Part shown: positions 67-59,606 of the stretch, in pieces
Layout: every line of letters begins with the position of its first letter
Numbering within the stretch: position 1 is the stretch's first letter
Origin: an uncultured Pseudomonadota bacterium
GTDB lineage: Bacteria > Pseudomonadota > Gammaproteobacteria > Burkholderiales > SG8-39
Reading direction: 5' to 3'
Length of the DNA stretch: 64,000 nucleotides
NCBI GenBank assembly: GCA_903834835.1
Contig: CAILKO010000052.1
Location: forward strand, 90 to 64,089
Translations under genes and position numbers: made by a program
Notes under the pieces: model-generated
The model's database searches: none
Told to the model about the DNA's origin: nothing
Seen by the model: only the letters and a program-made list of their open reading frames with translations

Positions 67-88
67 ATAGTAACGTATTTGTTACTAT
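67..88 (+). repeat. 22-bp palindromic site copy 1 (ATAGTAAC-GTATTT-GTTACTAT)
   Basis: Perfect 8-bp inverted arms with a 6-bp spacer, 28 bp past the stop of the AbiEii-like gene. Five further copies are in the window. Confidence 0.9.
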
Positions 89-116
89 CATGGCTCGACG
101 GGGCAGATTCTCTTCT

Positions 117-977
117 TCATTTCGCTGCGGGAATATCCAGGCCGAGCAGCCCTGTATGGAACATCGCGAGCAGTCCAAGCATTTTCCCCGGGTCATGCGC
201 GTTCAGCTGCGATACGAGCGCAAGGGCCCCCTCGGGATCCAGTTCCGGCGCCAGCACCGCTTCCAGGCTTGCGACTAGGGTCTCGAACCGCGCGCTGTGC
301 TTCAACATTGCCGCGCGCGCGTCGCGTCCCAGCAGCCATGCCCCGGTTTGCTCGTAGTCGAAGTTCTCCGTCATGACGTGCAGTAACTCTGCGTAAAGGC
401 GCTCCGCGTTGCCGGCATCGAGATAGCGGCGAAGGAGCAGCGCGAGATCGACCGCGTCCTTCCCCCGCGTGTGCAGGTGCCTGTCTTTCCAGGCCAGTAT
501 TTTCAGCACCGCAAGCATGGGTAACGAGACGACACGCGCAGTGCAGTTCTGCGGCAGCAGAACGGCCAAGGCCGCCGCGTCCGCTTCGGCGTACCCCGTC
601 ACGATCATTACGTCGTCGCCGGAGGGCGGCCACGCGATCGAACCGTCGGCCCGTTCCACGGCCCCGAACGGTATCAGGTCGACCCAGCCGGACTTTCGAT
701 GGCGGAGCTTGTGCAACGTATCGCGGTAGGGTTCGAACAGACCGCTCGCCACCAGCGCTTCGCGGGCGACGGCAAACTGTTGCCAGTCAGCTACGGCAAG
801 CGCCAGGTCGGTATCGGTGGTCGCGCGCTCGATTCGGATACCGTATCCGTAGTGCAGGATCAGATCGCGAGCCAGCGCACCGACCAGCAGCGGCTGAAGT
901 GCGGGCGCCACCTCGCGGAGATCAGCGACAAGTTGCGCCAGCCAGGCCAGGTCCTGCTTGTGCGACAGGTCAAGCAC
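117..977 (-). CDS. AbiEii-like nucleotidyltransferase (type IV TA toxin)
   Basis: 286 aa. The motif LVGALARD...RATTDTDL is a DNA pol beta-like NTase signature, and KILAW...KDAVDL follows. It overlaps the upstream AbiEi-like gene. Confidence 0.8.
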   Translation of the reverse strand: MLDLSHKQDLAWLAQLVADLREVAPALQPLLVGALARDLILHYGYGIRIERATTDTDLALAVADWQQFAVAREALVASGLFEPYRDTLHKLRHRKSGWVDLIPFGAVERADGSIAWPPSGDDVMIVTGYAEADAAALAVLLPQNCTARVVSLPMLAVLKILAWKDRHLHTRGKDAVDLALLLRRYLDAGNAERLYAELLHVMTENFDYEQTGAWLLGRDARAAMLKHSARFETLVASLEAVLAPELDPEGALALVSQLNAHDPGKMLGLLAMFHTGLLGLDIPAAK

Positions 978-1989
978 CGGGGTGGACGATGCGCTCGTAG
1001 ATCAGCCTGGCGGTCTCCATGCAGCGCCCGTCGCCGTTCGCCATCAGATCCGCGTACACCAGGGGCTCAGGCGCCAGCGTTGCATCGTCGCCATCGAATG
1101 TCCAGAAGCGGCGATAGATTTCGACGTTCCCGTCTTCCTCCGTACGCAGCCGCAGATCGAGCAGCAGTCGCGGATCGATCCTGTCCGCGTAGAAGGTTGC
1201 GGTAGCGGGTCGCAGGTAGCGGGTGATTCGTCCTCCGGCGGGCTCTCCGCCCAGCACCGCGCCGTACCGGGTCGGGTCGAAAGTATCCCACCAGGCAAGC
1301 GTCTCGGCCCGGTAGCGCCCGAGCAACAGGCGCGGCCGCAGCGTATGCGGGTAGAACTCTGCCCACTGCTGCAGCAGACGTTCTCGTTGCAGCAGTCTGC
1401 GCTTGCCGCGCATCTCGTTTGCGTAGCCAAGCTTCGGCAGTTCCGCCATGACCCAGCCCACGGTGCCGTGCGCCACGTTGGCGCGCCGGGCAATCTCGCG
1501 ATAAGGCAGATCGATCCATTCGGGATGGCAGATCAGCGCAAACAGAACCTGGAGGCCGCTCGCCTGGAAAGCGCGCCCGGCCGGCTGCCGTGCAAGCCCC
1601 GCGGTGAGTTGCTTCCTGCCTTGTACCCAGATGAACAGGGGCGGCTGATCGAGGAAAGCGTTGCCGGCGGCGTCCAGGAACGGGATGCGCCGTGTCCGCA
1701 ATTCGTTTGCGATCGGGGGCGTAATGAAGTCGGCCACGAACAGCCCCGGCGCACCCAGTCGTTCGATCTGGTGAACAACCGCGTTGAGCGCTGCCGGTCG
1801 CAGACCGCGCTTCAGCACGACAACGTAGGTGGCGTCCCGCCCTCCGTAACCCAGGCGTACGCTTGCATCGGCCCTGGTGTTGCGCGGGGGAACCCCGTTG
1901 TCCTCGATCGCTGCGGCCACGCCGTACCCCCGCAGTCGAGCCAGCGCGGTCTCCAGCAGATCCTTGGTTCGGTGGGGGAGTATGTCCAC
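970..1989 (-). CDS. Type IV TA antitoxin, AbiEi family transcriptional regulator
   Basis: 339 aa with IPFLDAAGNAFL, an HTH-like PYREIARRANVAHGTV, GGEPA and C-terminal PLVYADL. Coupled to the NTase gene. Confidence 0.8.
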   Translation of the reverse strand: MDILPHRTKDLLETALARLRGYGVAAAIEDNGVPPRNTRADASVRLGYGGRDATYVVVLKRGLRPAALNAVVHQIERLGAPGLFVADFITPPIANELRTRRIPFLDAAGNAFLDQPPLFIWVQGRKQLTAGLARQPAGRAFQASGLQVLFALICHPEWIDLPYREIARRANVAHGTVGWVMAELPKLGYANEMRGKRRLLQRERLLQQWAEFYPHTLRPRLLLGRYRAETLAWWDTFDPTRYGAVLGGEPAGGRITRYLRPATATFYADRIDPRLLLDLRLRTEEDGNVEIYRRFWTFDGDDATLAPEPLVYADLMANGDGRCMETARLIYERIVHPGA

Positions 1990-2002
1990 GATTCAAGCAT
2001 TA

Positions 2003-2116
2003 TCCATGATGCATGGACAGCGGTCAAATTGTGGACAAACAGAGATTCCGGAGGGTTGTTCCCGGGAACAAAGCTGGCACCTCGTCCATTCTGGAATCAA
2101 ATCCACGCTACGTGGA
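2003..2116. promoter_or_regulatory. Probable AbiEi autoregulatory operator region
   Basis: TCCATG-atg-CATGGA (2003-2017) and TCCACG-cta-CGTGGA (2102-2116), extra GTGGACA half-sites, and the perfect palindrome TTGTTCCCGGGAACAA (2056-2071), all upstream of the antitoxin. Confidence 0.5.
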
Positions 2117-2182
2117 CATTAATCTCCGGTGGACACGCATTCCTGGGCTGCAACCCCTTGCTCACGCTCGCAACGGTTCCCC

Positions 2183-2460
2183 TCAGATCTCCGCATAAGC
2201 CCGTGGTGCCACATCGCGGCAGCGCTGGTCGAGCTGGTGGGCGATCCAGTCGATGAGCTGCGTCGTCAGCGCCGCGAAATTCGACTTCGGGAAATACGTG
2301 CCGCACTGCTTGCCGGTCAGCACCGCCACCTCGCTGCGGCTCTTCAGCTCGACGAACCAGCCCGGCAGCACCACCACCTGCTTCACTGCCACCGGCTCGC
2401 CGACCGCGCGGGTGAGAAAATCGCGCAGCCAGTCGGCGTTCATGCGCGCCTTTTCGAGAG
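2183..2460 (-). pseudogene. 3' remnant of a NERD-domain nuclease gene
   Basis: Reads LEKARMNADWLRDFL...VVVLPGWFVE, resembling the C-terminal half of NERD proteins. The 5' part is missing and the junction lies at the subtilase stop. Confidence 0.55.
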
Positions 2461-2462
2461 TC

Positions 2463-4094
2463 TTACTGTGGGGCGCTCAGTGCATCCCGCGCGACGCCGA
2501 AGCCACGTTGCTGAAGTGCCTTGACCGTGGACGCCGGTGCGGTGACCGAGAATCGCGAGCTGTCGCCCGGCAGTCGCTCCACGTATACGACGGAACCGCG
2601 CGGCGCTGAAGCACCCATGTCGTTGACCACGTCCAGGGGCGCCACGCCGCCCGCGCCGCTGGTGAGTATGAACTTCTCGAGTCGCTCGCCCGCGCCCGAG
2701 GTCACAGCGGGAACAGCTCTAATCGTTCCAGACGATGTACCGGCTTTGAGCACTTCATCGGCCGCCGCAGCAAGACGGATCCTTGAATAGATCGCATTCG
2801 TTGCCCGGTCCTTCACCGGCAGGCCGGTCGACTTCAATGCGGAGAGCACCTCGGCAACCGAGGCCTGGGGTCTGGTCTGCCGTATGAGTGACCATGCCGC
2901 GGCCACGTGTGGTGTCGCCATCGAGGTTCCACTCTTTATTGCGTAGCCCCCGCCGGGAACCGTTGAAAGAATCTGGTCGCCCGGGGCCACGAGAGAAAGA
3001 AAACGGCTCCGGTTGGTGTAGGCCTCCGCAAGCTGATTCCGATCGTCTGTCGCCCCGACTGAGATCGCAGATGAAATACAAGCCGGCGAGGAAATGCGAT
3101 TCGGCCTTCCGTCATTGCCCGCCGCGACTATGGTCGGAATACCGACACTGACCAGCTGGTCAATATCGGTCTTCATGGGCTCCTGGTCGCACTGCCCCTC
3201 GTAAGTGTCTACGCCAAGACTCATATTCACCGCGACAATCTGTCGCGTCCGTGCAAGTTGCTTTACGTACTGTAGTGCCTTGATCTGGTCCGAGGTCCAC
3301 GACCGGGCACAAGGTGTCGCAGAACGGCATACATCCGCATTGTTAAGCACGGAAAAGACCTGTATCGCAACAATCCCCGCGTTCGGCGCGATGCCCGATA
3401 TGGGTTTCCCCGAGATCGATCCGACTGAACTGGCCACAATGCCCGCCACATGCGTCCCGTGGTCACAGCCCGCCACTTTCGAGGCACAGGGTCGTGCGGT
3501 CCCCGGCCCTTCCTCGAACGCCCCGCCATTCGGACACGCGGACTCCGAATTCGAGCTCGCGTCGGAGCTCGAGAAGCAAGCCTCATGTGCAATATGCGAC
3601 TTCAGCGCGGGATGTGCCGTATCCACGCCGGTATCCAGAACCGCAACAAACACCTTCTCTCCTCTGATATTGCGCCCCCACAGCGTGGGCGCCTCCACCA
3701 GCGGCGCACTCTCCTGCAACGAGGGTTCCGAGAGGCGATCCACGTACACGCGCGCGAGATTCGGATTCTTCATCATCGCAAGATATCCGCTTCCGTTCAC
3801 TGTCGCGCTAACCAGTCCCGGTGCAATCGCGCTTGCCCGTCTCGAAATCAGGTCGCCCGCCTGTACCGTCGCAGTCGCAAGGTCGCTTGATGACATCGTT
3901 GCAGAGAGACCCGGGATGACTGACGCAGGCTTGACCTCGGCAATGACACGAATCGCACCGAACTGCCGCAGAGCCCGCTGGGCTTCGGGGGGCAGTTGCG
4001 CGCCCGCTTCACCCGCCAGCGCTGCGACTGCAATGCCGGCGCACAGGAGACGTTGCCCCGACCTACGTAGCACCCCCGCTATTCGTTGATTCAT
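2463..4094 (-). CDS. Secreted S8 (subtilase) serine peptidase
   Basis: Catalytic motifs VLDTGVD, HGTHVAG, AAGND and GTSMATPHVA. Signal-peptide-like N-terminus from ATG 4094, preceded by a purine-rich RBS. Confidence 0.9.
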   Translation of the reverse strand: MNQRIAGVLRRSGQRLLCAGIAVAALAGEAGAQLPPEAQRALRQFGAIRVIAEVKPASVIPGLSATMSSSDLATATVQAGDLISRRASAIAPGLVSATVNGSGYLAMMKNPNLARVYVDRLSEPSLQESAPLVEAPTLWGRNIRGEKVFVAVLDTGVDTAHPALKSHIAHEACFSSSDASSNSESACPNGGAFEEGPGTARPCASKVAGCDHGTHVAGIVASSVGSISGKPISGIAPNAGIVAIQVFSVLNNADVCRSATPCARSWTSDQIKALQYVKQLARTRQIVAVNMSLGVDTYEGQCDQEPMKTDIDQLVSVGIPTIVAAGNDGRPNRISSPACISSAISVGATDDRNQLAEAYTNRSRFLSLVAPGDQILSTVPGGGYAIKSGTSMATPHVAAAWSLIRQTRPQASVAEVLSALKSTGLPVKDRATNAIYSRIRLAAAADEVLKAGTSSGTIRAVPAVTSGAGERLEKFILTSGAGGVAPLDVVNDMGASAPRGSVVYVERLPGDSSRFSVTAPASTVKALQQRGFGVARDALSAPQ

Positions 4095-4157
4095 TCCTGC
4101 CTCCTTCCCCAACTGTCGATATTGCGAGCCATGCTTCACCCGCAAACAAAGTCAAAC

Positions 4158-5684
4158 CTACGGAACCATGTCCTCGCTTCCCTTCTCGATATTCATCTCC
4201 TCTTCCGGTGTCGTATGCGATATGAGTCCGCCGACCAGCATGGTGTTCTTCGTCGCATCCAACACACGGTAGGTCACCTGCGCGGTGGCCGATCGGCCGA
4301 GTCGTGCCGAGCGCCAGCCGCTCGTCTTCGTATCCTGTACGTCCTGACTCGCGAACGAATAAACAAGCCTGGGCTTTGCCTTTATCGCTTCACCCAGGGT
4401 CAGCAATGCCGCGTGGCCCGTCATCTTGTTGTCCGCACCAGGCTTGAACAGGTCCAGCAGCCCTTTCGCAGGCTCGAGGGTCGCCTTGAGCTGGCCGGCG
4501 AGTTGTCGAAGCTGCACCAGATGATCGACAAGCTTGCCGATATCGGGCTTCGGATCCACCTTCTCTTTGCCTGTCCCGGTTGCTGCCGGTTTTTTGTCCG
4601 GTACAGCCGCCTGTTCCTTCTCCTGCACCTTGGCAATCTGGCCTTCCAGGGACTTGATCTCGGCATCGCCCCGGGTCGCCGTATCCTGTGCACGCAGGTA
4701 GGTAATCAGCAGTGTCCGGTACTTTGTACCCAGGAGATCAAGTTGCGCCTTGACGTCGAAAACCAGGTACTCCGGCACAGCGTTATCGATGACGTTCGTG
4801 CACGTCGCGTGAGTCCCCAGATACGTGGCAAACAACTCGCCTCGCGTGCTGTCGGTCCCCACCGCGAGCGCCCGATCCGTTCTGAATAGCTTGGCTACCG
4901 ACTGGATGCCGCCCGCGATATATGGCAGCTGCGCCAGGAGGGCAAGGGCAGCAGGAATTGCCTGCGGCCCGGCAAGCTGGGGGCGCAATGCCTTGTCGAA
5001 CGCGCTACGCGCACCGTCCACCTTGCTCTCGATGTCATCGAAGGACGCCTTCACCTGCTGCGCCTCCTGGATCGCCACCAGTTTTGAAAGGTCCGTCACC
5101 ACGGCACCCTTGATCCCCGCCGAGGACAGCTTGCCGCACAGCTTGCCCGCGAGTTTCTCTGCGGCCTTCGCCGACATGACCGAGCTCTGCAGCAGGCGCG
5201 TCCCCTCGCTCTTGATGTCTACGCTGCCTTCCTTGCCCTGCGCTGCGGTGAAATACTGCTTGAGGACGTCCGTATCCACAAAATCGCTCTTCAACTGCGC
5301 GGTGAGCAGGGAGTTCTTCGCTTCCTGCAACGCCTTCTGCGCGTTGGCCATCGCCGCCGCAGCGTCCGTATCGCCTTTTGCGAGATTGCTCTGCGCTGTC
5401 TGAAGAGCCACCAGCGCGGCGATCAGCGTGGACTGCTGTGTCGTATCCGCGGCGCGCAGGGCATCAGCACCGAGCGATCGCTGAGCCGTCAGTATGCTCG
5501 CCTGAGTCTGCAGAATCTGGAACTGCAGCGATAGCATCTGCTGTTGCGTCGTCAGCTCGGCAATCTGCTGCTGGGGGGTGGGCTGGTCCTGCGCCACGGC
5601 GAGACCGGAAGTCGCCGCGAAACCGGCTGCAGCGAGTGCCATGAGCGAAGGACGTATGCGGAATCGGACCGGCGTATGCGTCAT
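4158..5684 (-). CDS. Secreted hypothetical protein with coiled-coil/Gln-Ala-rich segments
   Basis: 508 aa with a signal peptide (LMALAAAGFAATSGLAVA-Q) and heptad-like helical stretches. No family recognised. Co-oriented directly upstream of the subtilase. Confidence 0.7.
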   Translation of the reverse strand: MTHTPVRFRIRPSLMALAAAGFAATSGLAVAQDQPTPQQQIAELTTQQQMLSLQFQILQTQASILTAQRSLGADALRAADTTQQSTLIAALVALQTAQSNLAKGDTDAAAAMANAQKALQEAKNSLLTAQLKSDFVDTDVLKQYFTAAQGKEGSVDIKSEGTRLLQSSVMSAKAAEKLAGKLCGKLSSAGIKGAVVTDLSKLVAIQEAQQVKASFDDIESKVDGARSAFDKALRPQLAGPQAIPAALALLAQLPYIAGGIQSVAKLFRTDRALAVGTDSTRGELFATYLGTHATCTNVIDNAVPEYLVFDVKAQLDLLGTKYRTLLITYLRAQDTATRGDAEIKSLEGQIAKVQEKEQAAVPDKKPAATGTGKEKVDPKPDIGKLVDHLVQLRQLAGQLKATLEPAKGLLDLFKPGADNKMTGHAALLTLGEAIKAKPRLVYSFASQDVQDTKTSGWRSARLGRSATAQVTYRVLDATKNTMLVGGLISHTTPEEEMNIEKGSEDMVP

Positions 5685-5877
5685 ATTGGGCTCCTGATCG
5701 GGACAACTGAGGGTCGAACTCTGGCGCGCATATATAGCGCAGCTTTGCGTTGCTGGCTCTATCTGATTTAGAGAATGGAGTCAGAGGCAACGAGGAGCGG
5801 CATGACTCTGTCCAACCCTGAAGTGCGCCTTTTGCTCGTGCGGTTCGGGGAAGAGTTTACGAGCGATTCTTTAGCGT

Positions 5878-5899
5878 ATGGGAACGTATTTGTTACTAT
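5878..5899 (+). repeat. 22-bp palindromic site copy 2 (ATGGGAAC-GTATTT-GTTACTAT, degenerate left arm)
   Basis: 20/22 identical to copy 1, and 28 bp past the helicase stop. Confidence 0.8.
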
Positions 5900-5927
5900 C
5901 TCTTGCAGGACGAGCCGGTTTCCCCCC

Positions 5928-7778
5928 TCAGCGCCCGTTCGCACGCCGCAGCCGCAGCGCGAACTCCGAATCTGCGTGATGCGTGACGATAAGACGGTCC
6001 ACGGCCCGCGTCATCGCGACGTACAGCAGGCGCGCTTCCGCCGCTGGGTCTTCTTCGCGGTGCGGGAGATAGCCGATGCCGGGCACGAGCACGACGGGGA
6101 ACTCCAGGCCCTTGCTCGCGTGCATCGTCATCACCTTCACGCTATCGGCGGCGGGATCGTAGCGGCGCGCGCCGGCGGTTCGGCCGAGCCATTCCACAGG
6201 CACGCTCGCGCGTTCGAGGGCTTCGACGATGCGCTCGCCCATGAACTTCACGCGATACACCACCGCCATCTCGTTCCACGGCATGCCCGAGGCGTGCAGC
6301 GCCTTCAGCCGCTCGACGGCAAAGGCCGCCTCGCTGCGGAAGTCCGGGAACTTCAGGATCTCCGGCTTCGGCCCGTGTCGCCCGGCGCTCTCGGGGCTGA
6401 TGAGCGGCACGCCATCCTCTTCGGCTTCCTCCGGAGTCATCACTTCGCGCGCGAATTCGTAGGCCATGGCGAGCACTTCGGCTGTGTTGCGGTAGTTCAG
6501 GCGCAGGATGGTCGTGCGCCCGCGCGCCTGGATGCCGACCTCGGCAAAGCTGAAGCCGCGCTTGCGCCGTGCACCGTAGAGCGCCTGTGCATCGTCATAG
6601 AGTACGAGCAGCGAGTTCGTATCCGGGTCCACCATCTGGGAGACGATGCGCAGCCAATCGGGCTCGAAGTCATGGCCTTCGTCGATCAGCACTGCCCCGT
6701 ATTGCGCGCGCGGGATCAGTTTCGCGTCCACGCCGGAAATCACCGCCTGCACCAGCGCCTGCCAGTAGCCGTCTCCGGGCGGAGGCTTGCGTGCGTGGTA
6801 GAGCCGCAGCTGATCGTTGCACCAGGCATGGAAACTGCGCACGCTGACCTTTTCCTCCAACCCTGCCGCGTGCATCAGATGGGCGAGCCGTGCAGAGAGC
6901 GAAACGTTGAAACACAGCACGAGGATCGGCTTCGCAAGCAGCTTCGCCAGATGCTGGGCGCGATAGCCGAGGATCATCGTCTTCCCCGAGCCGGCCACGC
7001 CGTGGATCACGCGGTGGCCCTCGCCCAGGCTGCGCGCGAGCTGCTCCTGCTGCAGGTCCATCACGCGAACGAGGTCCGGAATCGTCGGCGTCTCCTCCGC
7101 TGGTGCATCGCCGAAGTCCAGTCCGACCTGCGCGGCCGGCACGCGGATCTCGGGGAAGAGATGCCAGCGGATGCGGTCCACCTGCGGCAGCGTCAGCATC
7201 GTGCGGAACACCACGCCGAACATGCGCCAGAGCCGCTCCTGGAAAAACTCTGACGAGACCGACTCCACCATCTCGTCCTGGCAGATCACGCGCTCCGGCG
7301 GCAGGATGTTCCTCAGCTCCGCGGCATGCGAGGGATGCTCCAGCTGACGGCGCGTGATACCCGCCAGCACCACGCCATAGCCCCAGGGGAAAATCAGCCG
7401 CCCGGCCATGGGGTGGCCGTCGGGATGCACCAGCGCCGGATCGCGCTCCATCACCCGGCACACCGCATGCGCGTACTGACGGGCCTGCTCGAGCGGATTC
7501 GCGACTACCTTGTCGCCGCGCTCCGTACGGATCGTCGCTGACATCTTGTCCATCGCGACAATCGTTTCCAGCTTCCAGTCCTTCACCTCCAGCACCAGCA
7601 GCCCGCGCCGCGGATTCAGCACCAGAAAATCCGGATGCTGCCGCGCATTGCCGACCGGCACGTCGTACCAGCAGAGATAGTCGTCTTCGAGATGCGATTC
7701 GAGCCGCTGGCCAAAGCGCCGCTCGCCGGAAGTCATGCGGCGGAGTGCGGTGGAGAGGGCTGGGATGAGGGTGGCCAT
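5928..7778 (-). CDS. NERD nuclease fused to a UvrD-like SF1 helicase
   Basis: N-terminal PDF...LEVKDW (NERD), Walker A GVAGSGKT, LIDEGHD, and TMHASKGLEF plus LLYVAMTRA (UvrD C-terminus). Confidence 0.88.
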   Translation of the reverse strand: MATLIPALSTALRRMTSGERRFGQRLESHLEDDYLCWYDVPVGNARQHPDFLVLNPRRGLLVLEVKDWKLETIVAMDKMSATIRTERGDKVVANPLEQARQYAHAVCRVMERDPALVHPDGHPMAGRLIFPWGYGVVLAGITRRQLEHPSHAAELRNILPPERVICQDEMVESVSSEFFQERLWRMFGVVFRTMLTLPQVDRIRWHLFPEIRVPAAQVGLDFGDAPAEETPTIPDLVRVMDLQQEQLARSLGEGHRVIHGVAGSGKTMILGYRAQHLAKLLAKPILVLCFNVSLSARLAHLMHAAGLEEKVSVRSFHAWCNDQLRLYHARKPPPGDGYWQALVQAVISGVDAKLIPRAQYGAVLIDEGHDFEPDWLRIVSQMVDPDTNSLLVLYDDAQALYGARRKRGFSFAEVGIQARGRTTILRLNYRNTAEVLAMAYEFAREVMTPEEAEEDGVPLISPESAGRHGPKPEILKFPDFRSEAAFAVERLKALHASGMPWNEMAVVYRVKFMGERIVEALERASVPVEWLGRTAGARRYDPAADSVKVMTMHASKGLEFPVVLVPGIGYLPHREEDPAAEARLLYVAMTRAVDRLIVTHHADSEFALRLRRANGR

Positions 7779-7811
7779 GGGGAGAAAGTTAGTGCACGAA
7801 CGGCCTGCCTG

Positions 7812-8531
7812 TCATCGGGTTCCTGCCGCAGCCGTCGCTTGCGGCACGGCATCGACCTTCTCCCGTACGCTTCGCACCATATCGAAAAAGGCGACGCCGT
7901 CGATCAGCTCGATATTGCGCCCGCGCGCGAACTCCCGCGCATCGGCCGTGTAGCTGCCCGCGCTCACCACGAAGCCGCCCGCCGCGCCGCGCGCCGCCAT
8001 CACCCCGTAGAGCTCGCGCACCGTCATCACCGGCACCTTCTGCGCACGCCACTGCTTGCACTGGACGATGAACTTCTCCGTGCCCTTCGTGAGCACCATG
8101 TCCACACCGCCGTCCGCCCCGCCCCCGCCTGTTTCCTTAACCACATAACCGCGGATGCGGAAAGCTTCCGAAACGAGGGCTTCGAACTCCTGCCAGGTCA
8201 TGTCGCCGAGGACGCTCGCGTGTTCGGCGGTGGCGACGTTGAACACGAGTTCCTCGCGCTTCGAACGTTTGTACGCGGACATCCCCGCACCGATCAGAAA
8301 CACCACCGGCAGCACATACTGGAAGAACATTGCGAACGTGCGGATCGCCGTCCAGGCAATTGCCGTACCCATCTGATTCATCGTCGTCGGCGCGGGAGGC
8401 TGCGACCCGGCCAGAACATGCAGTACGCCGAAGGAAATGAATGCGAGCGCGACACCGACCCACCAGGGCGCTTTGGCGGTGATTGCCATGATGTCTTCGA
8501 GGGGTGAATCTTTCGAACGGCGTCTTGCCAT
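7812..8531 (-). CDS. mrr: Membrane-anchored Mrr-family restriction endonuclease
   Basis: Two hydrophobic N-terminal segments, then the Mrr_cat motifs WQEFEALV, GADGGVD, IVQCKQW and IELIDG. Confidence 0.85.
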   Translation of the reverse strand: MARRRSKDSPLEDIMAITAKAPWWVGVALAFISFGVLHVLAGSQPPAPTTMNQMGTAIAWTAIRTFAMFFQYVLPVVFLIGAGMSAYKRSKREELVFNVATAEHASVLGDMTWQEFEALVSEAFRIRGYVVKETGGGGADGGVDMVLTKGTEKFIVQCKQWRAQKVPVMTVRELYGVMAARGAAGGFVVSAGSYTADAREFARGRNIELIDGVAFFDMVRSVREKVDAVPQATAAAGTR

Positions 8532-14852: not shown

Positions 14853-15102
14853 CGAGGATCACTCTGATTTAGAACGTGGATTCTGGCGCGAAGGGTGTGT
14901 GCGCTGGTGCGGACATCATCTAAGTGCAACGCATGCCTGGAAGCACCCGCCCCCGTTTACAAGCAAAAGGGAATTCTCCCGGGACCCGAGTGTGCAAAGA
15001 CCCTGCCCTTAAAGCAAGCATTCCTGCGATTCTCCGACGTGGGGAAAGCTTGACGCCACTCCGCCACCCCCAGAGGAAGAAAATCGCCCCATACCCGTCT
15101 AG

Positions 15103-15124
15103 GTAGTAACATTTACGTTACCAT
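15103..15124 (-). repeat. 22-bp palindromic site copy 3, inverted orientation (minus strand ATGGTAAC-GTAAAT-GTTACTAC)
   Basis: The plus strand reads GTAGTAAC-ATTTAC-GTTACCAT, so the spacer is reversed relative to the other five copies. Located upstream of mod. Confidence 0.8.
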
Positions 15125-15172
15125 CTATCCCACCACCCACCCACCCTCCCCCGCATCCGCTATCCTCCCCCC

Positions 15173-27036: not shown

Positions 27037-28209
27037 ATGCCAGCCGCCCTGCCCGCCGCATTGCCTGCACTCCTCGCCGCCTTCATCGTCTCCGCCTGCG
27101 GGCATGCGCTCTACAACGGCAGCCGCATGATCGTCTCGCTGATGGCGATCACGCTGGAGGCGGGGCCGGCGACGCTCGGCGCGCTCGGGGCGCTCGGCGG
27201 GCTGCTGCCGACGCTCTTCGGCGTGCCGCTCGGACGGCTGATCGACCGCGTCGGCGTGGCGCGGCCGGTGATGGGCAGTCTCGTGCTGGCCGCGCTCGGC
27301 ATCCTCGCGCCGGGGCTGTGGCCCTCGTACTGGACGCTCGCGCTCGCGAGTCTCCTCGCGGGGCTTGCCTTCATGATGGGCATCATCGGCGCGAACAAGG
27401 CGGTGGCGATGCTCACCTCGCCCGAGCGCCGCGCGGGCCAGCTCGGCTGGCTCTCGGCCACGAGTTCGATCGGCGGCTCGGCCGCGCTGATGGCGCTTGG
27501 CTATGCGGTGGACCACTACGGGCATCGCGCGAGCTTCATGCTCACCGCCCTCGTGCCGGCGGTTTCCTGCCTCGCGCTCGCCACGCTCGGGCGCAGCCTG
27601 CCCCGGCGCGGGCCGGACGCGCCCGCGCAGCGGACCGGCTCCACGATGGATCTGTGGCGCGATGCGCCGCTGCGCCGCATGCTGCTGCTCTCGGCGGTGG
27701 TGCCGGTGGCGAACGACACCTTCAGCTTCCTGATGCCGATCATCGCCTCCAACCTCGGCTGGTCGGCCACCCTGACCGGCATCGTGATGGGCAGCGCGCT
27801 CGGCGCGGCGATGCTGGCGCGCGCGCTGCTCCCCTGGACGACGCGCGTGATGCGGCCCTGGACGCTGCTCGCCGTATCCTTCGTCGCGATCAGCGGGGCC
27901 TATCTGCTGATGCCGGTGGTCGAGCACCCGCTCCTGATGGCAGTACTCGCGCTCACGATGGGGCTCGGCACCGGCATGGCCCCGCCCGTGCTCTCGGCCC
28001 TGCTCTACGAGGATTCCCCGCCCGGGCGCCAGGGCGAGGTGTTCGGGATGCGCGGCTCGCTGCAGTTCGCGCTCGCGGCCGGCGCGCCGCTCGCGGTGGG
28101 CGCGCTCGGCACCTTTGTCGGCCTGTCGCCGATGATCTGGGCCATGGGTTTCGCGATGAGCTGGGCGGCGCGCGTCTCCTTCCGCGAACGCGCACGCCGC
28201 GCGGGCTGA
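27037..28209 (+). CDS. MFS transporter (paralog group B)
   Basis: 390 aa with about 12 hydrophobic helices and MFS motif A GRLIDRVG. Paralog of 34399-35544 (shared SPPGRQGEV). Confidence 0.85.
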   Translation: MPAALPAALPALLAAFIVSACGHALYNGSRMIVSLMAITLEAGPATLGALGALGGLLPTLFGVPLGRLIDRVGVARPVMGSLVLAALGILAPGLWPSYWTLALASLLAGLAFMMGIIGANKAVAMLTSPERRAGQLGWLSATSSIGGSAALMALGYAVDHYGHRASFMLTALVPAVSCLALATLGRSLPRRGPDAPAQRTGSTMDLWRDAPLRRMLLLSAVVPVANDTFSFLMPIIASNLGWSATLTGIVMGSALGAAMLARALLPWTTRVMRPWTLLAVSFVAISGAYLLMPVVEHPLLMAVLALTMGLGTGMAPPVLSALLYEDSPPGRQGEVFGMRGSLQFALAAGAPLAVGALGTFVGLSPMIWAMGFAMSWAARVSFRERARRAG

Positions 28210-28243
28210 ATACCGGCAGTAAAAAACGCCCTGTGATGCCATG

Positions 28244-28265
28244 ATAGTAACGTATTTGTTACTAT
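28244..28265 (+). repeat. 22-bp palindromic site copy 4 (ATAGTAAC-GTATTT-GTTACTAT)
   Basis: Identical to copy 1. Lies between two convergent stop codons. Confidence 0.9.
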
Positions 28266-28272
28266 CTATCTT

Positions 28273-29451
28273 CTACACCCGCCCCGGCTTCCTCCCCACC
28301 CAGGCGCCGGCCATCCCCATCAGCGCCGCACCCGCCACGAACACGCCGGCGAGCCCGATCGCGGCTGCGAGCGCGCCGAAAGCGGGCGGGGTCAGCACGC
28401 GCAGCGCCGCGTTGCCGGTGTTGCGCACCGCGAGGAACTGGCTCGCCGCCGCGGGCGGCAGGCGCGCATAGGCAAGCGTCGAGGTGATCGGGTTCGCCGC
28501 ATAGCAGGCGTAGCCATAGATGAAGCTCGAGGCGACCAGCACCGCCGCGCCGCTGCCCGCCAGCAGCAGCACGAGCGAGACGCCCATCAGCACCAGACAT
28601 AGGCCGAGCACGCGCTCCTCGCCCAGCCAGATGGAAAGCCGCGGCAGCGTGAGCGGCAGCACGATCATGCCGATCGCGGACACCGACACCGTCGCACCGA
28701 TCACCGAGGCCGAGAGCCCCGCCGCATGACCGAAGAGTGGCAGCAGGAAGGGATAGAGCTCGAAACCCACGCAGCAGATGCTGCTCATCGCGACCAGCCG
28801 CCAGACCTCGCGATGGCGGAGCGTCTCCTTCAGCCCGCCTGCGGCGGACTTCGCGCCCACCGGCGCGGGCAGGCTCTGCCCCCAGACGAGCAGCAGCACC
28901 AGCATCGCGAGCGCGAAGGGCAGGTAGACGAGCATCGCGCTCTGCTGCCCGACCGCGTCGATCGCGATGCCCGAGGCGAAGGGACCGATGAACGCGGTGA
29001 AGGAGGAGATGAAGGCGTAGCGGCTGAAATTGCGCGATAGCGTGGCCGGCGTGGAGAGTAGCCCGACCACCGTCTGTGTGGGCTGGAAGGCGAGCGTGTT
29101 CGCTGCGCCGAAGAGCAGCGCCGCCGCGTACACCGAGGCAATCGTCGGCACAAAGAAGGGCAGCACCGCCCCGGTAACGCTGCAGCAGGCGCTCGCATAG
29201 AGGAGCGGCCGCGCGCCCCAGCGATCGAGCGCCATCGACACCGGTATCGAGATGAAGAGCATCGGGATCTGGCTGCCGGCGGCGATCACGCCGACCTCGA
29301 AGGACCCCGCGCCGAGTTCCAGCGCGAACAGCGACAGCGCCACGCGTGCGCCGATCATCGGCACGAAGGCGAGCGTGAGCAGTGCAAGGATGAGCTTCAG
29401 GCCGGTGCTCATCGGGCTGCGCGCGGATTCCGGGGAGGCGCGGGTAGCCAT
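28273..29451 (-). CDS. MFS transporter (paralog group A)
   Basis: Hydrophobic, with ALDRWG, PLFGHAAGLSASVIG and FLAVRNTGNA. Alternative start at 29412. Confidence 0.85.
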   Translation of the reverse strand: MATRASPESARSPMSTGLKLILALLTLAFVPMIGARVALSLFALELGAGSFEVGVIAAGSQIPMLFISIPVSMALDRWGARPLLYASACCSVTGAVLPFFVPTIASVYAAALLFGAANTLAFQPTQTVVGLLSTPATLSRNFSRYAFISSFTAFIGPFASGIAIDAVGQQSAMLVYLPFALAMLVLLLVWGQSLPAPVGAKSAAGGLKETLRHREVWRLVAMSSICCVGFELYPFLLPLFGHAAGLSASVIGATVSVSAIGMIVLPLTLPRLSIWLGEERVLGLCLVLMGVSLVLLLAGSGAAVLVASSFIYGYACYAANPITSTLAYARLPPAAASQFLAVRNTGNAALRVLTPPAFGALAAAIGLAGVFVAGAALMGMAGAWVGRKPGRV

Positions 29452-44670: not shown

Positions 44671-44795
44671 CGCGGTCCTCCGCCAGGGGGGGGGTCGGGT
44701 CGCCAGGGTGCCACGGCGACAGTCGCGCACGGCGGCCGGGAGTGTCGCACGACCGCCGGCCGGCACGGGGACGGTTTCACGGCCGACCGGAATTG

Positions 44796-44817
44796 ATAGT
44801 AACGTATATGTTACTAT
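44796..44817 (+). repeat. 22-bp palindromic site copy 5 (ATAGTAAC-GTATAT-GTTACTAT)
   Basis: Perfect arms, in the divergent intergenic region between the MFS and dioxygenase genes. Confidence 0.9.
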
Positions 44818-45064
44818 TGTCGCAGAATATCCGCCATTTCCTTCCTCCGCTTCCGGCCGTCTCCTTGCCGACCTTTGATCTGCATCAAGCCCCTGTGGCC
44901 GGCCGGCCAGTACAAAGGAACCCACGGCGCACCGATGCCTGCTTCCGCGAGCGGAAGGGGGAAAGGCAGACAGCCGGAGCAGGACGGGAGCAGGGTTGCT
45001 CGGCCGATGGAAACGGCGAGACCCCGCGCACTGGCAAGGCAACGCAGGCACTCTGGAGAACACT

Positions 45065-57204: not shown

Positions 57205-57270
57205 GGCGAGGCCCGATCATCCGGTCCCGGCGAGGCCCGATCATCCGGTCCCGGCGAGGCCCGATCATCC
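57205..57270. repeat. 24-bp tandem repeat (GGCGAGGCCCGATCATCCGGTCCC) x2.75
   Basis: Exact copies start at 57205 and 57229; a partial copy at 57253 includes the recQ stop codon. Confidence 0.92.
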
Positions 57271-59079
57271 AGCCAGCAAGCCGAGGATCGCCTCGCCGTA
57301 GCGCTCGAGTTTCTTCTGCCCGATGCCGTCCAGCGTGCCGAGCGCCTCGAGGGTATCCGGCCGCAGCGCCGCGATCGCGGCCAGCGTGCGGTCATGGAAA
57401 ATCACATACGCGGGCACGCCCTGACTGCGCGCTTCGCCGCCGCGCCAGGCCTTCAGCGCGTCGAGCAGCGCGGCATCGGCAGCGGGCAGATCCGTCGCCG
57501 GGCCGCGGCGCTTCGTGCCTGAACGCTTCTTCTGCGCAACGCGGCGCAGCTCCACGCCGGTTTCGCCCTTCAGCACCGGGCGGCTCGCCTCGGTAAGTGT
57601 GAGCGCCCCATAGGCCTCGTGGTCGGGCCGCAGGAAACCGAGCGCGGTCAGCTGGCGGAACACGCTGCGCCATTCGGAGTCATCGAGGTCCGCGCCGATG
57701 CCGAATACCGAGAGCTGGTCGTGGTTCCAGCTTTTGACGCGGTCAGTCGCCTTGCCGCGCAGCACGTCGATGAGGTGCACCGCGCCGAAACGCTGGCCGG
57801 TGCGATAGACCGTGGAGAGCGCCTTCCTCGCCGCCTCGCCCGCGTCCCAGGTCTCGGGCGGCTCGAGGCAGGTATCGCAGTTGCCGCAGGGCGTGCTCGT
57901 CTCGCCGAAGTAATCGAGCAGACGCACGCGACGGCAACCCGCGGTCTCGCACAGGCCGAGCAGCGCATCGAGCTTGGCGACCGACACGCGCTTGTAGTCC
58001 TCGCTGCCCTCGGACTGATCGATCATGCGGCGCTGCTGCACGACATCGCCCAGGCCGTAGCTCATCCAGGCATCGGCCGGCTCGCCGTCGCGACCGGCGC
58101 GCCCGGTCTCCTGGTAATAGCCCTCGATGCTTTTCGGCAGATCGAGGTGAGCGACGAAACGTACTTCGGCCTTGTCGATGCCCATGCCGAAGGCGATGGT
58201 CGCCACCATCACGATGCCCTCCTCGTCCTGGAAACGCGCCTGGTGGGCGCTGCGCGTTTCCGCGTCCAGACCGGCGTGATAGGGGAGCGCCTTGATCCCC
58301 TGTGCGGCCAGAAAGGCCGCGGTTTCGTCCACCTTGCGGCGCGACAGGCAGTACACGATGCCGGTGTGGCCGTAGTGCGCGCCGCGGATGAAGGCGAGCA
58401 GCTGCGCGCGCGGCTCGGCCTTGTCGACGATGGTGTAGCGGATGTTCGGCCGGTCGAAGCTCGACACGAACACGCGCGCCTCATCGAGCGCGAGCCGCGC
58501 GATGATCTCGGCGCGCGTCTGGGGATCGGCGGTCGCGGTGAGCGCGATGCGCGGCACCTGCGGGAAGCGCTCGTGCAGGATGGAGAGCTGCAGATACTCG
58601 GGGCGGAAGTCGTGCCCCCACTGCGACACGCAGTGCGCCTCGTCGATGGCGAAGAGCGCAAGCTCGGCCTCCTCGAGGAGGGACAGCATGCGCGGCATCA
58701 CCAGCCGCTCGGGCGCCACGTAGAGAAGATCGAGCCCCCCCGCGGCGAAGCTGCGTTCCACCGCAGCGGCCGCGCGCCCGTCTAGCGAGGAATTGAGAAA
58801 GGCGGCACGCACGCCAAGCTGCTCGAGCGCCGTGACCTGGTCGCGCATCAGTGCGATGAGCGGCGAGACCACGAGCGCCGTGCCCGGGCGCAGCAGCGCG
58901 GGCAGCTGATAGCAGAGCGACTTGCCCCCGCCCGTGGGCATGAGGACCAGCGCGTCGCCCCCGGAGACGAGGTGCGAGACGATCGCCTCCTGAGGCCCGC
59001 GGAAGGCAGGATGGCCGAAGGTGCCGCGCAACAGCTCGAGCGCGCCGCCCGCGGCGGCGGATGGTCCCTGCATCGCCAT
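57265..59079 (-). CDS. recQ: DNA helicase RecQ
   Basis: [39 protein letters not shown], Zn-binding CRR...CGNCDTC, RQC and HRDC domains. Confidence 0.96.
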
Positions 59080-59531
59080 CAGGCCGCGCCTGCGCGCGCG
59101 AGCAGGCGGTCGAGCTGTCCGGCGAAACGCTTGCGATCCGCCTGGCTGAAGGCGGACGGGCCGCCCGTCTGCACGCCGCTGCCGCGCAGTTCGTCCATGA
59201 AATCGCGCATCACCAGCCGCTCGCGTATCGTCTCCGGCGAGACGAGTTCGCCGCGGGGATCGAGCACCGTCACCCCCTTGGCGATCGCGTCCGCCGCAAG
59301 CGGGATGTCTGCCGTGATGACGAGATCACCCGGCTCGGCCTCGGCGACGATGCGGTTGTCGGCCACATCGAAACCGCGCGGCACCTGCAGCGCGCGGATA
59401 TAGATCGAGGGCGGCGTGCGCAGCGCCTGATTCGCGACCAGCGTCATGTGCACCTTCGCGCGCTCGGCCGCGCGGAACAGGATTTCCTTGATCGGCGCCG
59501 GGCAGGCGTCCGCATCGACCCAGATTTTCAT
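59079..59531 (-). CDS. yaiI: YaiI/YqxD family protein
   Basis: [15 protein letters not shown] and VITADIPLA. Confidence 0.92.
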
Positions 59532-59584
59532 GACGCGAGTTTCGCACGCCGGGCGGGGAATCCCGCGGCCAGGGTCGAAGATAA

Positions 59585-59606
59585 ATAGTAACGCATATGT
59601 TACTAT
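59585..59606 (+). repeat. 22-bp palindromic site copy 6 (ATAGTAAC-GCATAT-GTTACTAT)
   Basis: Perfect arms. Its right end supplies the photolyase TAG stop, and it lies upstream of yaiI-recQ. Confidence 0.9.

Follow-up and report, generated by a model that had tools for sequence, protein, structure and literature searches.

A chromosome-wide family of palindromes matching a toxin-antitoxin operator, and its candidate binding protein, in an uncultured Burkholderiales bacterium

Introduction

Operators of type II toxin-antitoxin systems, bound by XRE/Cro-type HTH antitoxins (HigA- or HipB-like), carry half-sites one helical turn apart. Other palindromes are dispersed along the chromosome. The sites matS, SBS and NBS occur in dozens to hundreds of copies and are each bound by one small dimeric DNA-binding protein (MatP, SlmA and Noc, respectively), and proteins of this type were recruited from families with another original job. 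Correia elements, known from Neisseria, and comparable MITEs are small mobile palindromes; with them a protein-binding site enters intergenic DNA, and promoter or terminator signals may come along. The REP/BIME and REPIN-RAYT families of proteobacteria comprise hundreds of short extragenic palindromes, located at gene 3' ends and in convergent gaps. They persist for long periods and are used as IS insertion targets; PMC1525189 gives five IS families as REP-targeting, with IS30 not among them.

Here we describe a family of palindromes that was noticed in a 64,000-nt stretch of DNA (the window) from an uncultured bacterium, G000. As in type II toxin-antitoxin operators, the GTAAC half-sites are one turn apart (11 bp, centre to centre), and such a palindrome lies upstream of an operon in relatives. 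The partner protein likewise has a predicted XRE-like fold and is predicted to dimerize. However, the family has about 183 copies in G000, mostly at gene 3' ends and not at promoters, and the G000 protein gene has no adjacent toxin gene, falls into a separate orphan clade and belongs to a family without Pfam or NCBIfam model. The elements resemble REPs in number, extragenic placement, persistence and targeting by IS, but they lack the GTAG head (4 of 182 sites begin with G), occur singly in a gap, are hit by an IS30-like element and have a transcription-factor operator as their conserved part. In contrast to matS, SBS and NBS, the sites leave no assembled region free, are tied to gene ends, are over-evenly spaced and lie inside hairpin-capable elements, and the protein is of another family. 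The family shares with Correia elements the character of a small palindromic unit, and one de novo insertion is documented for it. Its conserved part is nevertheless central and not terminal, its copies have diverged strongly beyond the core, and the candidate cognate protein is lineage-specific and not IHF.

Materials and Methods

G000 is a 3.37-Mb draft genome in 74 contigs (89% complete, 3.7% contamination), and its gene contexts rest on a crude in-house gene caller. The G000 site set was obtained by a motif scan allowing up to three mismatches. For comparison we used 400 genomes sampled across the order and 250 further genomes from the family of G000, including G420 from another genus. Two patterns were scanned, TRGTAAC-N6-GTTACYA (strict) and GTAAC-N6-GTTAC (minimal core).

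Results

An earlier note, made from the window sequence, had reported six 22-bp palindromes. All six were recovered with the same positions and sequences (Table 1), while 0.01 were expected in shuffles and none of 100 shuffles reached six. The perfect arms described for four of them were found as well; the other two carry two mismatches each. Elements 1 and 2 both lie 28 nt beyond a stop codon, the distance given before, which belongs to an AbiEii-like gene (117-977, minus strand) and a UvrD-like helicase gene (5928-7778, minus strand), respectively. The left arm of element 1 is interrupted by IS end A, 16 nt from the core. Element 4 indeed occupies a convergent gap, 34 nt and 7 nt from the MFS transporter genes 27037-28209 (+) and 28273-29412 (-), and a TAG in the core of element 6 (minus strand) does form a stop codon, that of a photolyase gene (59603-61039, minus strand). 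Two copies had been assigned to divergent regions. This is consistent for element 3, which precedes the start of gene 11700-14852 (-) by 250 nt within a long gap, but not for element 5, which follows the stop of 44885-46537 (-) by 67 nt and precedes the start of 43540-44766 (-) by 29 nt. The site of element 4 is bridged with one gap by a contig of a ~96% identical strain, and the gap holding element 5 is unalignable in ~95% identical strains (86 letters versus 55). An Rfam search of the window gave no match. No cognate protein is encoded in the window, as had been observed; the candidate lies on another contig.

Table 1. Palindromic elements and the adjoining IS end in the window.
Feature	Position	Strand	Description
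IS end A, outer 50 nt	1..50	-	multi-copy IS with inverted-repeat termini
Element 1	51..125		core 67-88 (ATAGTAACGTATTTGTTACTAT, perfect) and right arm; left arm cut by IS
Element 2	5843..5934		core 5878-5899 (ATGGGAAC...GTTACTAT, 2 mismatches); G-rich and C-rich arms
Element 3	15068..15159		core 15103-15124 (GTAGTAAC...GTTACCAT, 2 mismatches); arms GAGGAAGAAAATCGCC / CCACCCTCCCCC
Element 4	28209..28300		core 28244-28265, perfect; convergent gap
Element 5	44761..44852		core 44796-44817, perfect; between two minus-strand genes
Element 6	59550..59641		core 59585-59606, perfect; overlaps photolyase gene end

The genome scan revealed 105 perfect copies among the ~183. Their consensus is ATAGTAAC-RTATAY-GTTACTAT, within which lies the core GTAAC-N6-GTTAC. 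T4-A5-A6-C7, the mirror bases T16-A17-C18 and G3 were identical in 182 of 182 aligned G000 sites, and G14 and T15 in 180; tolerated core variation is located solely in the outermost bases and the spacer. Each core is centred in an imperfect palindrome of roughly 80 bp, the elements measuring about 45-80 bp. The flanks, previously called unrelated, are so only in part: the palindrome extends to ~30 bp, and on either side there are arms of weak conservation, complementary to each other, which reach ~30 nt out; their G000 consensus, read outward from the core, is CTATCCCGGGACGCCCCGATTTCCTCCCC. Element hairpins had an MFE of -32.5 kcal/mol, compared to -26.6 kcal/mol with shuffled flanks. When IS-cut halves were set aside, no pair of half-elements within G000 resembled each other beyond the prediction of the weak consensus, the mean best identity being 23.1/40 against 21.7 in the null, with a maximum of 28 in both. 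Judged from these alignments, the G000 elements include no recent copies, their arms saturated with change while the half-sites are still perfect.

The sites had also been described as directional. This was not borne out, since among the 183 copies 71 have a T-rich, 76 an A-rich and 36 a balanced spacer, and RTATAY, the consensus, is in itself symmetric. The spacer hexamer takes at least 25 forms, the commonest (ATATAT) in 18 of 183. The A-rich/T-rich split bears no relation to gene direction (19 A-rich versus 13 T-rich in both tandem classes), and 65 of 114 pairs of adjacent sites have the same spacer orientation.

According to the in-house gene caller, 60 sites are convergent, 76 tandem, 22 divergent and 7 intragenic, and 18 lie at contig edges. 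The median position is ~40 nt beyond a stop codon, and a site is present in 60 of the 173 convergent gaps that measure 60 bp or more. The sites are spaced more evenly than expected by chance. The CV of the gaps was 0.63 compared to 0.99 +/- 0.08 under uniform placement (0 of 2000 simulations as low), and 0.57 compared to 0.95 +/- 0.08 when sites were redrawn among gaps of the same class (0 of 3000). Sites are never closer than 2007 bp, with one element per gap and never doublets or clusters. The genome-wide enrichment that the earlier note had proposed to look for is evident, as all 30 contigs of 15 kb or more contain a site. The largest gap is 61 kb, and a search of assembled G000 for a site-free region found none.

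G420 was the only many-copy genome among the 250 other family members. The strict pattern occurs 175 times in G000 and 85 times in G420, and at most twice per genome in the 400 genomes across the order and in the 249 family genomes besides G420. The minimal core was counted 119 times in G420, four times in G492, once in G430 and not at all in G001 and G007. In 26 other family genomes the motif is present once or twice, amounting to 28 sites, and 27 of these precede, by 97-445 nt and on the correct side, a gene for a homologue of a 106-aa HTH protein; the sole exception lies at a contig end. Two of the genomes are unpublished, and leaving them out gives 25 of 26. At ten directly inspected loci the site was found 5-20 nt upstream of the first gene, and in six of them the HTH gene is preceded by a RelE/ParE-type toxin gene (TIGR02683 / Pfam Gp49). 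Since the palindrome stands directly upstream of a toxin and HTH antitoxin operon, we conclude that it is the operator of this operon, and with 5-20 nt between its end and the first start codon, it must overlap the promoter there. A match to a regulator's box together with copies confined to promoters would have spoken against the earlier interpretation. Of these two features one is present: the motif matches a toxin-antitoxin operator of relatives, but the G000 copies lie mainly at gene 3' ends.

G000 itself carries a gene for a 106-aa HTH protein (C15:39826-39506, minus strand) with no toxin gene in front. Here, TTGGTAAC-TTATCT-GTTACCAT is located 42 nt upstream of the ATG, a weaker variant (three mismatches) than the amplified consensus. 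G420 shows the same arrangement, a toxin-less gene with a palindrome copy in front. The orphan clade splits from 48 toxin-linked proteins with 100/100 support, and the recognition segment P-x-K-S-L-H-R-M-L is invariant in all 28 aligned proteins and identical in both orphans. No Pfam or NCBIfam family covers the orphan protein and the PDB contains no sequence relative, so that its assignment to an XRE-like fold rests on middling structure matches, namely C.EcoT38IS (Z 7.3, rmsd 2.5 over 67 residues) and HipB-operator complexes (Z 6.3). In the AlphaFold model (pLDDT 89), residues 34-100 align to Cro/XRE HTH proteins known to bind palindromic operators. A homodimer model scored 0.70 against 0.00 for the best of three controls, a mark attained by 20 of 30 proteins whose solved structure is a pair of one chain and by 1 of 23 whose structure is a single chain, although this pass may reflect likeness to XRE dimers, which are common among solved structures. 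The three runs agreed in at least 98% of contacts with a partner pLDDT of at least 90, and the predicted interface leaves residues 65-71 free. G492 also has an orphan-clade protein (57% identical, own site upstream), yet only its four core sites, and hence the presence of such a protein alone does not predict site amplification.

A flank could be matched for 18 G420 sites. For six of them, the orthologous position in G000 has a site no more than 400 nt away, and for five of these no more than 52 nt (chance rate 4-6%; binomial P = 4.6e-4). In seven shared pairs the flanks are identical at 15-25 of 60 positions, the chance level, and both half-sites are intact. The arms differ at orthologous positions too, G000 having its own consensus and G420 the GGCGCCGG type. 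Shared positions could in principle reflect a shared target preference instead of common descent. Furthermore, a single de novo insertion is documented: in G420, a 47-bp segment with the core at its centre separates two genes whose junction is tight in both G000 and three outgroup genera. An IS30-like element inserts specifically into the G000 elements, and all 15 contig ends that carry IS end A have it 16-18 nt from a core.

Discussion

The family is best explained by a sequence-specific DNA-binding protein, in agreement with the chromosome-wide protein sites suggested earlier; an ordinary single-operon operator fits poorly, as the same note had argued. We consider it somewhat probable that the sites are selected binding sites of a domesticated, toxin-less antitoxin, multiplied mainly at gene ends.

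A selfish REP- or MITE-like repeat without host role, its core kept for a copying enzyme and its operator likeness a by-product of the origin of the first copy, seems unlikely to us. Such a repeat would account for the new insertion in G420, the hairpin-capable elements, the restriction to two lineages and a REP-like behaviour (extragenic, at gene 3' ends, IS target; for REP-targeting IS see PMC1525189). It does not readily account for saturated arms around perfect half-sites with no recent copies, for a third of the positions being common to both genera or for the over-even spacing. Moreover, we searched G000 for a Y1/RAYT transposase and found none, the Y1 gene of G420 is flanked by a different repeat, its own unrelated REP, and the conserved part is central, unlike in a transposon with terminal inverted repeats.

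Elements acting on RNA or transcription are improbable, be they bidirectional terminators, mRNA-stabilising 3' hairpins or a TACTAT -10 box in the half-site that drives outward or antisense transcripts and is silenced by the HTH protein. The positions past stop codons and in convergent gaps and the possible extended hairpins would suit them, as would the promoter overlap of the operator in relatives. T-runs (at least four in six) are present in 23-51% of arms, depending on which of the four intergenic contexts is considered, compared to 16% of control windows, but they show no preference for the side that incoming transcription reaches last (tandem+ 0.29 versus 0.31, tandem- 0.39 versus 0.51). 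The core at 28243-28266 was called terminator-like by prediction. Ordinary G000 terminators nevertheless look different (A-tract, 8-12-bp GC stem, T-tract), a terminator needs no sequence-invariant AT-rich 8-bp stem tip, and Rfam was without match in the window. One weak promoter-like match straddles each of two scanned sites, but at the prediction minimum (9/12). The tyrosine recombinase core sites put forward by the earlier note, which would be dif/Xer-like or integron-like, fit the inverted arms of ~12 bp around a 6-bp AT-rich spacer. Tyrosine recombinases require the overlap regions of two partner sites to match. Here, the spacers are unlike between sites and without orientation, positions are stable across genera, and elsewhere the motif is tied to the HTH gene promoter, so that we give this proposal very little credence.

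For the preferred reading as antitoxin binding sites, we infer the binding by the orphan protein, its role in the cell and the way in which copies are made. A pure binding-site model leaves the semi-conserved arms, which differ between G000 and G420, and the origin of the copies unexplained. In the literature we found no description of chromosome marking by an amplified antitoxin operator. In this organism, a dimer of the orphan protein would bind the two GTAAC half-sites at all these places. The bound sites would then punctuate the chromosome at transcription-unit ends, especially where genes converge, and may act as roadblocks, insulators or topological/architectural barriers.

A large family of symmetric palindromes at gene ends

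The earlier note had described six palindromic sites in the window, and this count was reproduced exactly. A search with the pattern ATAGTAAC-N6-GTTACTAT, allowing up to three mismatches, returned these six sites only, four of them perfect and two with two mismatches, and shuffled versions of the window contained 0.01 sites on average. The window spans positions 90-64089 of contig C52, and the genome to which it belongs (G000) is a 3.37-Mb draft metagenome-assembled genome of 74 contigs, with 64.4% G+C, a completeness of 88.9% and a contamination of 3.7%. Under the same tolerance it holds 183 sites, or one per 18 kb; 105 are perfect, and 45, 28 and 5 have one, two and three mismatches, respectively. 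In a position table of 182 copies, G3, T4-A5-A6-C7 and the mirror bases T16-A17-C18 (numbering of that table) are invariant, and G14 and T15 are kept in 180 copies. Variation of the outermost core bases is limited: position 3 of the 22-mer is a purine (A or G), and its mirror position a pyrimidine (T or C). The spacer consensus, RTATAY, is symmetric. Symmetric conservation reaches out to about 30 bp (aTAg + core + cTAt) and rises a second time 24-29 nt out on each side, where a G-rich block on the left has a C-rich mirror on the right. From the core outward, half-elements of G000 have the consensus CTATCCCGGGACGCCCCGATTTCCTCCCC, with a per-position conservation of about 30-73%. Furthermore, the two flanks adjacent to the core show mutual complementarity over 4-16 bp in many copies, in a sequence that varies from copy to copy, and the folding energy of 90-nt elements is -32.5 kcal/mol, compared with a less stable -26.6 kcal/mol when the flanks around the cores are shuffled (Wilcoxon P = 9e-19). 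The unit can therefore be described as an imperfect palindrome, ~80 bp long at most, whose AT-rich tip is invariant in sequence. The longest perfect copy that we saw is a ~60-bp palindrome centred on a core, with 19 complementary bases on each side of ATGGTAACATATATGTTACCAT; the start of contig C35 and the end of contig C45 both lie inside it, and it is evidently an assembly breakpoint.

The sites had also been called oriented, on account of their spacers. Genome-wide, 71 spacers are T-rich, 76 are A-rich and 36 are balanced, the spacer is unlinked to the direction of genes, and among 114 pairs of neighbours 65 agree. Since the spacer shows no direction, this part of the earlier description finds no support.

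Gene contexts in G000 were assigned with our own crude codon-bias gene caller (2852 genes, 89.5% coding). By this assignment 60 sites lie between convergent genes, 76 between tandem genes, 22 between divergent genes, 7 within genes and 18 at contig edges. Convergent or tandem gaps thus hold 136 of the 158 classified sites, about 40 nt beyond a stop codon, and of the 173 convergent gaps with a length of 60 bp or more, 60 are occupied. In tandem gaps the median site is found ~40 nt after the upstream stop and ~100 nt ahead of the next start. Several genes use the TAG of the core or of the core flank as their stop codon. Within the window, five of six sites are located 0-67 nt beyond a stop codon, the exception being the degenerate copy 3.

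Spacing is also more even than expected. The coefficient of variation (CV) of the gaps within contigs is 0.63, compared with 0.99 +/- 0.08 for uniform placement, and none of 2000 simulations was as even; gaps under 5 kb number 14, where uniform placement predicts 41.6. With gaps redrawn at random while keeping the number in each class (convergent, tandem, divergent), the expected CV was 0.95 +/- 0.08 compared with an observed 0.57, and none of 3000 redrawings was as even. Each occupied gap contains one core, and the minimum distance between cores in G000 is 2007 bp. All 30 contigs of at least 15 kb have a site, the largest gap being 61 kb in this 74-contig draft.

The first 15,000 nt of the window have a GC content of 0.57-0.64, compared with ~0.68 in the remaining window, and resemble a defence island; three of the six window elements lie in or beside this low-GC stretch.

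Palindromic cores of the window and genes annotated in its low-GC stretch
Feature	Positions	Strand	Location
Core of element 1	67-88
Core of element 2	5878-5899
Core of element 3	15103-15124
Core of element 4	28244-28265
Core of element 5	44796-44817
Core of element 6	59585-59606
AbiEii-like nucleotidyltransferase toxin gene	117-977	-	low-GC stretch, 1-15000
UvrD-like helicase gene	5928-7778	-	low-GC stretch, 1-15000
ResIII-type helicase, 1035 aa	8588-11695	-	low-GC stretch, 1-15000
1050-aa protein, DNA adenine-methyltransferase domain	11700-14852	-	low-GC stretch, 1-15000

In relatives the palindrome is a putative toxin-antitoxin operator

The degenerate pattern TRGTAAC-N6-GTTACYA matches 175 sites in G000 and at most two in each of 400 genomes sampled evenly over 61 families of the order. 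At most two per genome were likewise found in 249 other genomes of the same family, with the exception of G420, the single genome of its genus, which has 85 sites with this pattern and 119 with the minimal core GTAAC-N6-GTTAC. The copies in G420 are also located just beyond stop codons. Their arms, of the GGCGCCGG type, are unlike those of G000, so that only the core is common to the two genomes. One or two pattern matches occur in each of 26 other family genomes; a reversed-pattern control matches four. The exact 22-mer was found in at least 88 stretches of public genome contigs, nearly all of them single chance matches in unrelated genomes, with four loci from one genome as the exception among the matches listed, and in 88 single matches in public viral contigs.

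At each of ten loci inspected in relatives, the palindrome lies 5-20 nt upstream of a small operon, and in six of them (genomes G430, G516, G452, G580, G490 and G437) this operon encodes a protein of ~108 aa followed by one of 106 aa. The first protein is a RelE/ParE-family toxin (TIGR02683, 85.6 bits at a cut-off of 62.85; Pfam Gp49). The second belongs to no family in Pfam or NCBIfam and is labelled "DNA-binding phage protein" in one source. We searched the family sample with the G000 homologue of this second protein as query. Among 28 sites in 26 genomes, 27 lie 97-445 nt from the aligned part of the homologue's gene and always on its upstream side; the single exception is 23 nt from a contig end. 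When two genomes flagged as unpublished (G505 and G441) were omitted, 25 of 26 sites remained upstream of the homologue. Judged by its position, the palindrome is thus the predicted operator of a toxin-antitoxin operon in the relatives. In type II systems in general, the antitoxin autoregulates its own operon.

A toxin-less homologue of the antitoxin is a candidate binder

G000 encodes one homologue of these antitoxins (C15:39826-39506, minus strand, 106 aa, 54-56% identical), preceded by a gene that does not encode a toxin. This orphan gene has a variant palindrome, TTGGTAAC-TTATCT-GTTACCAT, 42 nt ahead of its ATG; the other ~182 copies are elsewhere. In G420 the orphan gene occupies a different locus; its product of 107 aa is 55% identical over the full length, and TGGGTAAC-TTTTGT-GTTACCAT is found ~40 nt upstream. 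A further family genome, G492, encodes a protein of the orphan clade (57% identical) with CTGGTAAC-ATATAT-GTTACTTA immediately ahead of the start. In G000, G420 and G492 alike, the orphan gene has no toxin gene next to it. Since G492 has only four core sites in total, the orphan protein is insufficient for amplification. A tree of 60 proteins places twelve in one clade (100/100 support), separate from 48 toxin-type proteins; this clade consists of the G000 protein, five close metagenome relatives, the G420 protein and, as a third group, five more.

All 28 aligned proteins, of both types, share the segment P-x-K-S-L-H-R-M-L without variation. In the structural model this segment is located on a short helix (residues 65-71), and hence orphan and toxin-linked proteins should read the same half-site. 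In the AlphaFold model of the orphan protein (pLDDT 89.2), residues 34-100 align to Cro/XRE HTH proteins, which are dimeric binders of palindromic operators. The match list is uniform and includes HipB-operator complexes at a Z of 6.3 and the controller protein C.EcoT38IS at a Z of 7.3 (rmsd 2.5 over 67 residues), both of them middling values. A sequence-profile search of the PDB with the orphan protein gave irrelevant matches, with a best E of 0.008. Modelled as a homodimer, the protein scored 0.70, compared with 0.00 for the best of three controls, and passed a mark that is reached by 20 of 30 proteins with a solved same-chain pair and by 1 of 23 with a solved single chain. At least 98% of contacts are common to the runs, the partner has a pLDDT of at least 90, and the interface comprises residues 19-37, 77-88 and 95-106, with the putative recognition helix outside it. 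Because XRE dimers abound among solved structures, the model may have passed through its resemblance to them. Taken together, the invariant recognition segment, the XRE-like fold and the dimer model point to the orphan protein as a candidate binder of the palindrome.

One gap, flanked by a nuclease-like gene and the gene of a Crp-family regulator, can be compared between G000 and G420. It holds the element alone in G420 (locus L255), and the element together with the orphan HTH gene in G000 (C15:38600-40000); the G420 HTH gene is on the contig of L255, 9 kb away. With respect to a conserved element, the HTH gene has thus changed its position. Remnants matching TIGR02683 on G000 C46 and G420 C33 were considered as the lost toxin partner and rejected, as they sit beside a different antitoxin type. 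At G000 C46:46620-47050 (minus strand) and at G420 locus L248, a truncated Gp49/RelE-type toxin remnant is followed by an intact antitoxin of this different, canonical type (HTH ...GLGRESLYKAL...), and at L248 a palindromic element lies 28 nt beyond the stop of that antitoxin.

Old sites under apparent selection

We compared half-elements within G000, setting aside halves cut by insertion sequences (IS). The mean best identity of pairs is 23.1/40, compared with 21.7 in a column-permuted null, with a maximum of 28 in both. No half-elements are alike beyond the weak consensus and, hence, G000 has no recent copies. Orthology was assessed on 40 further G420 sites, a sample that replaced a smaller first one with two shared positions. 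For 18 of them, a flank could be matched to a G000 gene with an amino-acid identity of 50% or more across 40 or more residues, and for six of these 18 a G000 site lies within 400 nt of the projected position, five of the six within 52 nt. Such sharing exceeds a chance rate of 4-6% (binomial P = 4.6e-4). In seven shared pairs, the 60-nt flanks are identical at 15-25 positions, which is chance level. Both half-sites are intact in all seven, and where the cores differ, they do so only at the outermost bases or within the spacer. One pair follows the same orthologous gene, whose TAG stop adjoins the core in G000 as well as in G420. Intact half-sites within flanks at chance level are the signature of long-term purifying selection on a putative protein-binding site.

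Among closer strains, the site at 28244 is retained in a contig of a strain ~96% identical, and the gap around 44796 is unalignable in strains ~95% identical. At locus L232, three outgroup genera (G004, G006 and G010) and G000 have two genes joined by an ATGA overlap with translational coupling. G420 alone has 47 extra bases here, with the core in their centre, and the upstream gene now stops at the core TAG, indicating that copies can arise through insertion of a short unit. In window positions 59000-60250, the photolyase gene and its downstream neighbour are on separate contigs in the relatives searched, so that element 6 (59585) coincides with a synteny break.

An insertion sequence targets the elements

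Fifteen G000 contig ends carry one IS end (end A), which always starts 16-18 nt from a core, and twelve other contig ends carry end B, in most cases directly next to a G-rich outer arm. The IS has inverted-repeat termini (GGTGAGTTCAAC...AGTGCAAC and GGTGAATTCAAC...AGTGCAAC), and end B opens an ORF beginning MAYRHLTRIERY. A related IS end in genome G008 (81% nucleotide identity) runs into an ORF with an HTH_38 domain, which we take to be typical of IS30-family transposases. Positions 1-50 of the window lie inside such an IS insertion. Five IS families are listed as REP-targeting, a list from which IS30 is absent (PMC1525189). A match to the IS end in genome G018 was discarded, as the IS itself is absent there. 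This match (locus L228, G018:C38:35430-38505) is a 76-nt stretch, 82% identical to the untranslated part of end B, close to a Y1 transposase gene of the IS200/IS605 type and a fragment of a group II intron reverse transcriptase.

Other multi-copy repeats at G000 contig ends (including C32_R/C58_L) break the assembly and are unlinked to the palindromes. Two related repeat ends begin with TGACCTGCCCCC (five and four contig ends), and one of them opens the ORF MKKSRYSEEQIIGFLKQ, presumably IS3-like. Two further repeat ends, on three and two contig ends, follow a CTAG.

Comparison with known systems

As a type, the sites are a dispersed family of putatively protein-binding palindromes, which is a known kind. 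They resemble REP elements and REPIN-RAYT systems in being short extragenic palindromes with many copies, mostly at gene 3' ends. REPs have a conserved GTAG head. This head is absent here, the consensus being ATAG with G at the first position in 4 of 182 copies, and the inverted doublets or clusters of REPINs and BIMEs were not found, as each gap has a single core. We reject a RAYT-type REP family: G000 (89% complete) has no match to the Y1/RAYT transposase family PF01797, the one match in G420 is flanked by a different repeat without a core in the surrounding 6 kb, and G492 has two matches but four sites. The G420 Y1 gene (locus L225, C31:1-6000) is flanked by several unrelated hairpin repeats, AAAAAGGGGTCAGACCCCTTTTT-like, and looks like a separate REP-RAYT system in the same genome. 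A type II toxin-antitoxin operator with an XRE-HTH antitoxin matches the situation in the relatives, where the palindrome lies directly upstream of an operon; in such systems the antitoxin gene adjoins a toxin gene, whereas the orphan genes of G000, G420 and G492 lack one. The elements are unlikely to be ordinary bidirectional terminators. Those of G000 look different, being classic hairpins with an A-tract, a GC stem and a T-tract. T-runs occur in 23-51% of element arms in the four intergenic contexts, compared with 16% of control windows, and show no bias in the arms to the side downstream of incoming transcription. Promoter and terminator scans of two window sites gave minimal matches only, and Rfam at gathering threshold gave none in the window.

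The earlier note had favoured a chromosome-organising site or a tyrosine-recombinase core. The matS, SBS and NBS families consist of many dispersed palindromes, each family for one dimeric protein; here the sites are observed and a protein partner is proposed. Sites of such families are confined to, or kept out of, one region of the chromosome; in the 74-contig assembly of G000, all 30 contigs of at least 15 kb carry sites. A Xer/dif core shares the inverted arms around a 6-8-bp spacer. However, mutually recombining sites of tyrosine recombinases need the same spacer, and at least 25 spacers are found here, the commonest in 18 of 183 sites. The 47-bp insertion in G420, a short non-coding unit at a new place, is reminiscent of a MITE, but MITEs have terminal inverted repeats and near-uniform copies; here conservation peaks centrally and no half-element pair exceeds the null. 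The family can be seen as a hybrid of three known kinds (toxin-antitoxin operators, REP elements and site families of the matS/SBS/NBS type), and it lacks defining features of each. Our searches of open-access text yielded no account of an antitoxin operator that had been amplified, nor of hundreds of chromosomal sites for an orphan antitoxin, and no relevant description of bacterial MITEs carrying operators among open-access titles and abstracts. The listed literature matches to both half-strings are primers or barcodes, none of them relevant.

A possible role in chromosome organisation

In the best-supported account, a dimer of the orphan, antitoxin-derived HTH protein would bind the sites, and bound sites would be kept by selection at the ends of transcription units, at regular intervals. 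They might then act as a roadblock or insulator between converging transcription units or, alternatively, as a barrier or recruitment point for topoisomerases or condensins. Such roles would fit because a third of the convergent gaps are occupied, the sites lie ~40 nt after stop codons and the spacing of ~18 kb is even. Binding leaves the arms unexplained, whose lineage-specific consensus persists even at orthologous G000 and G420 sites.

The copy series of 1, 4, 119 and 183 resembles stages of one process. It is possible, though less likely than not, that a toxin-less antitoxin was domesticated as a chromosome-wide architectural or insulator protein, whose operator, carried on a small insertion element, was installed and then selected about every 18 kb at transcription-unit ends, delimiting transcriptional or supercoiling domains. 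That this is a new bacterial chromosome-punctuation system with its own targeted IS is an equally tentative suggestion. Few systems of chromosome-organising dispersed palindromes are known, each built on a protein borrowed from another job. REPs are, to our knowledge, the commonest extragenic palindromes, and we know of no agreed host function for them. The present case supplies a candidate protein for a REP-like family and an evolutionary source, a toxin-antitoxin operator, with living relatives that show intermediate states (1, 4, 119 and 183 sites), and it combines apparent cross-genus purifying selection on the sites with a spacing too even for chance. If binding and the role at gene ends were confirmed, a selfish addiction module and a small mobile element would have been turned into genome architecture, and the role of palindromes at convergent gene ends would become testable with one small protein and one 30-bp site.
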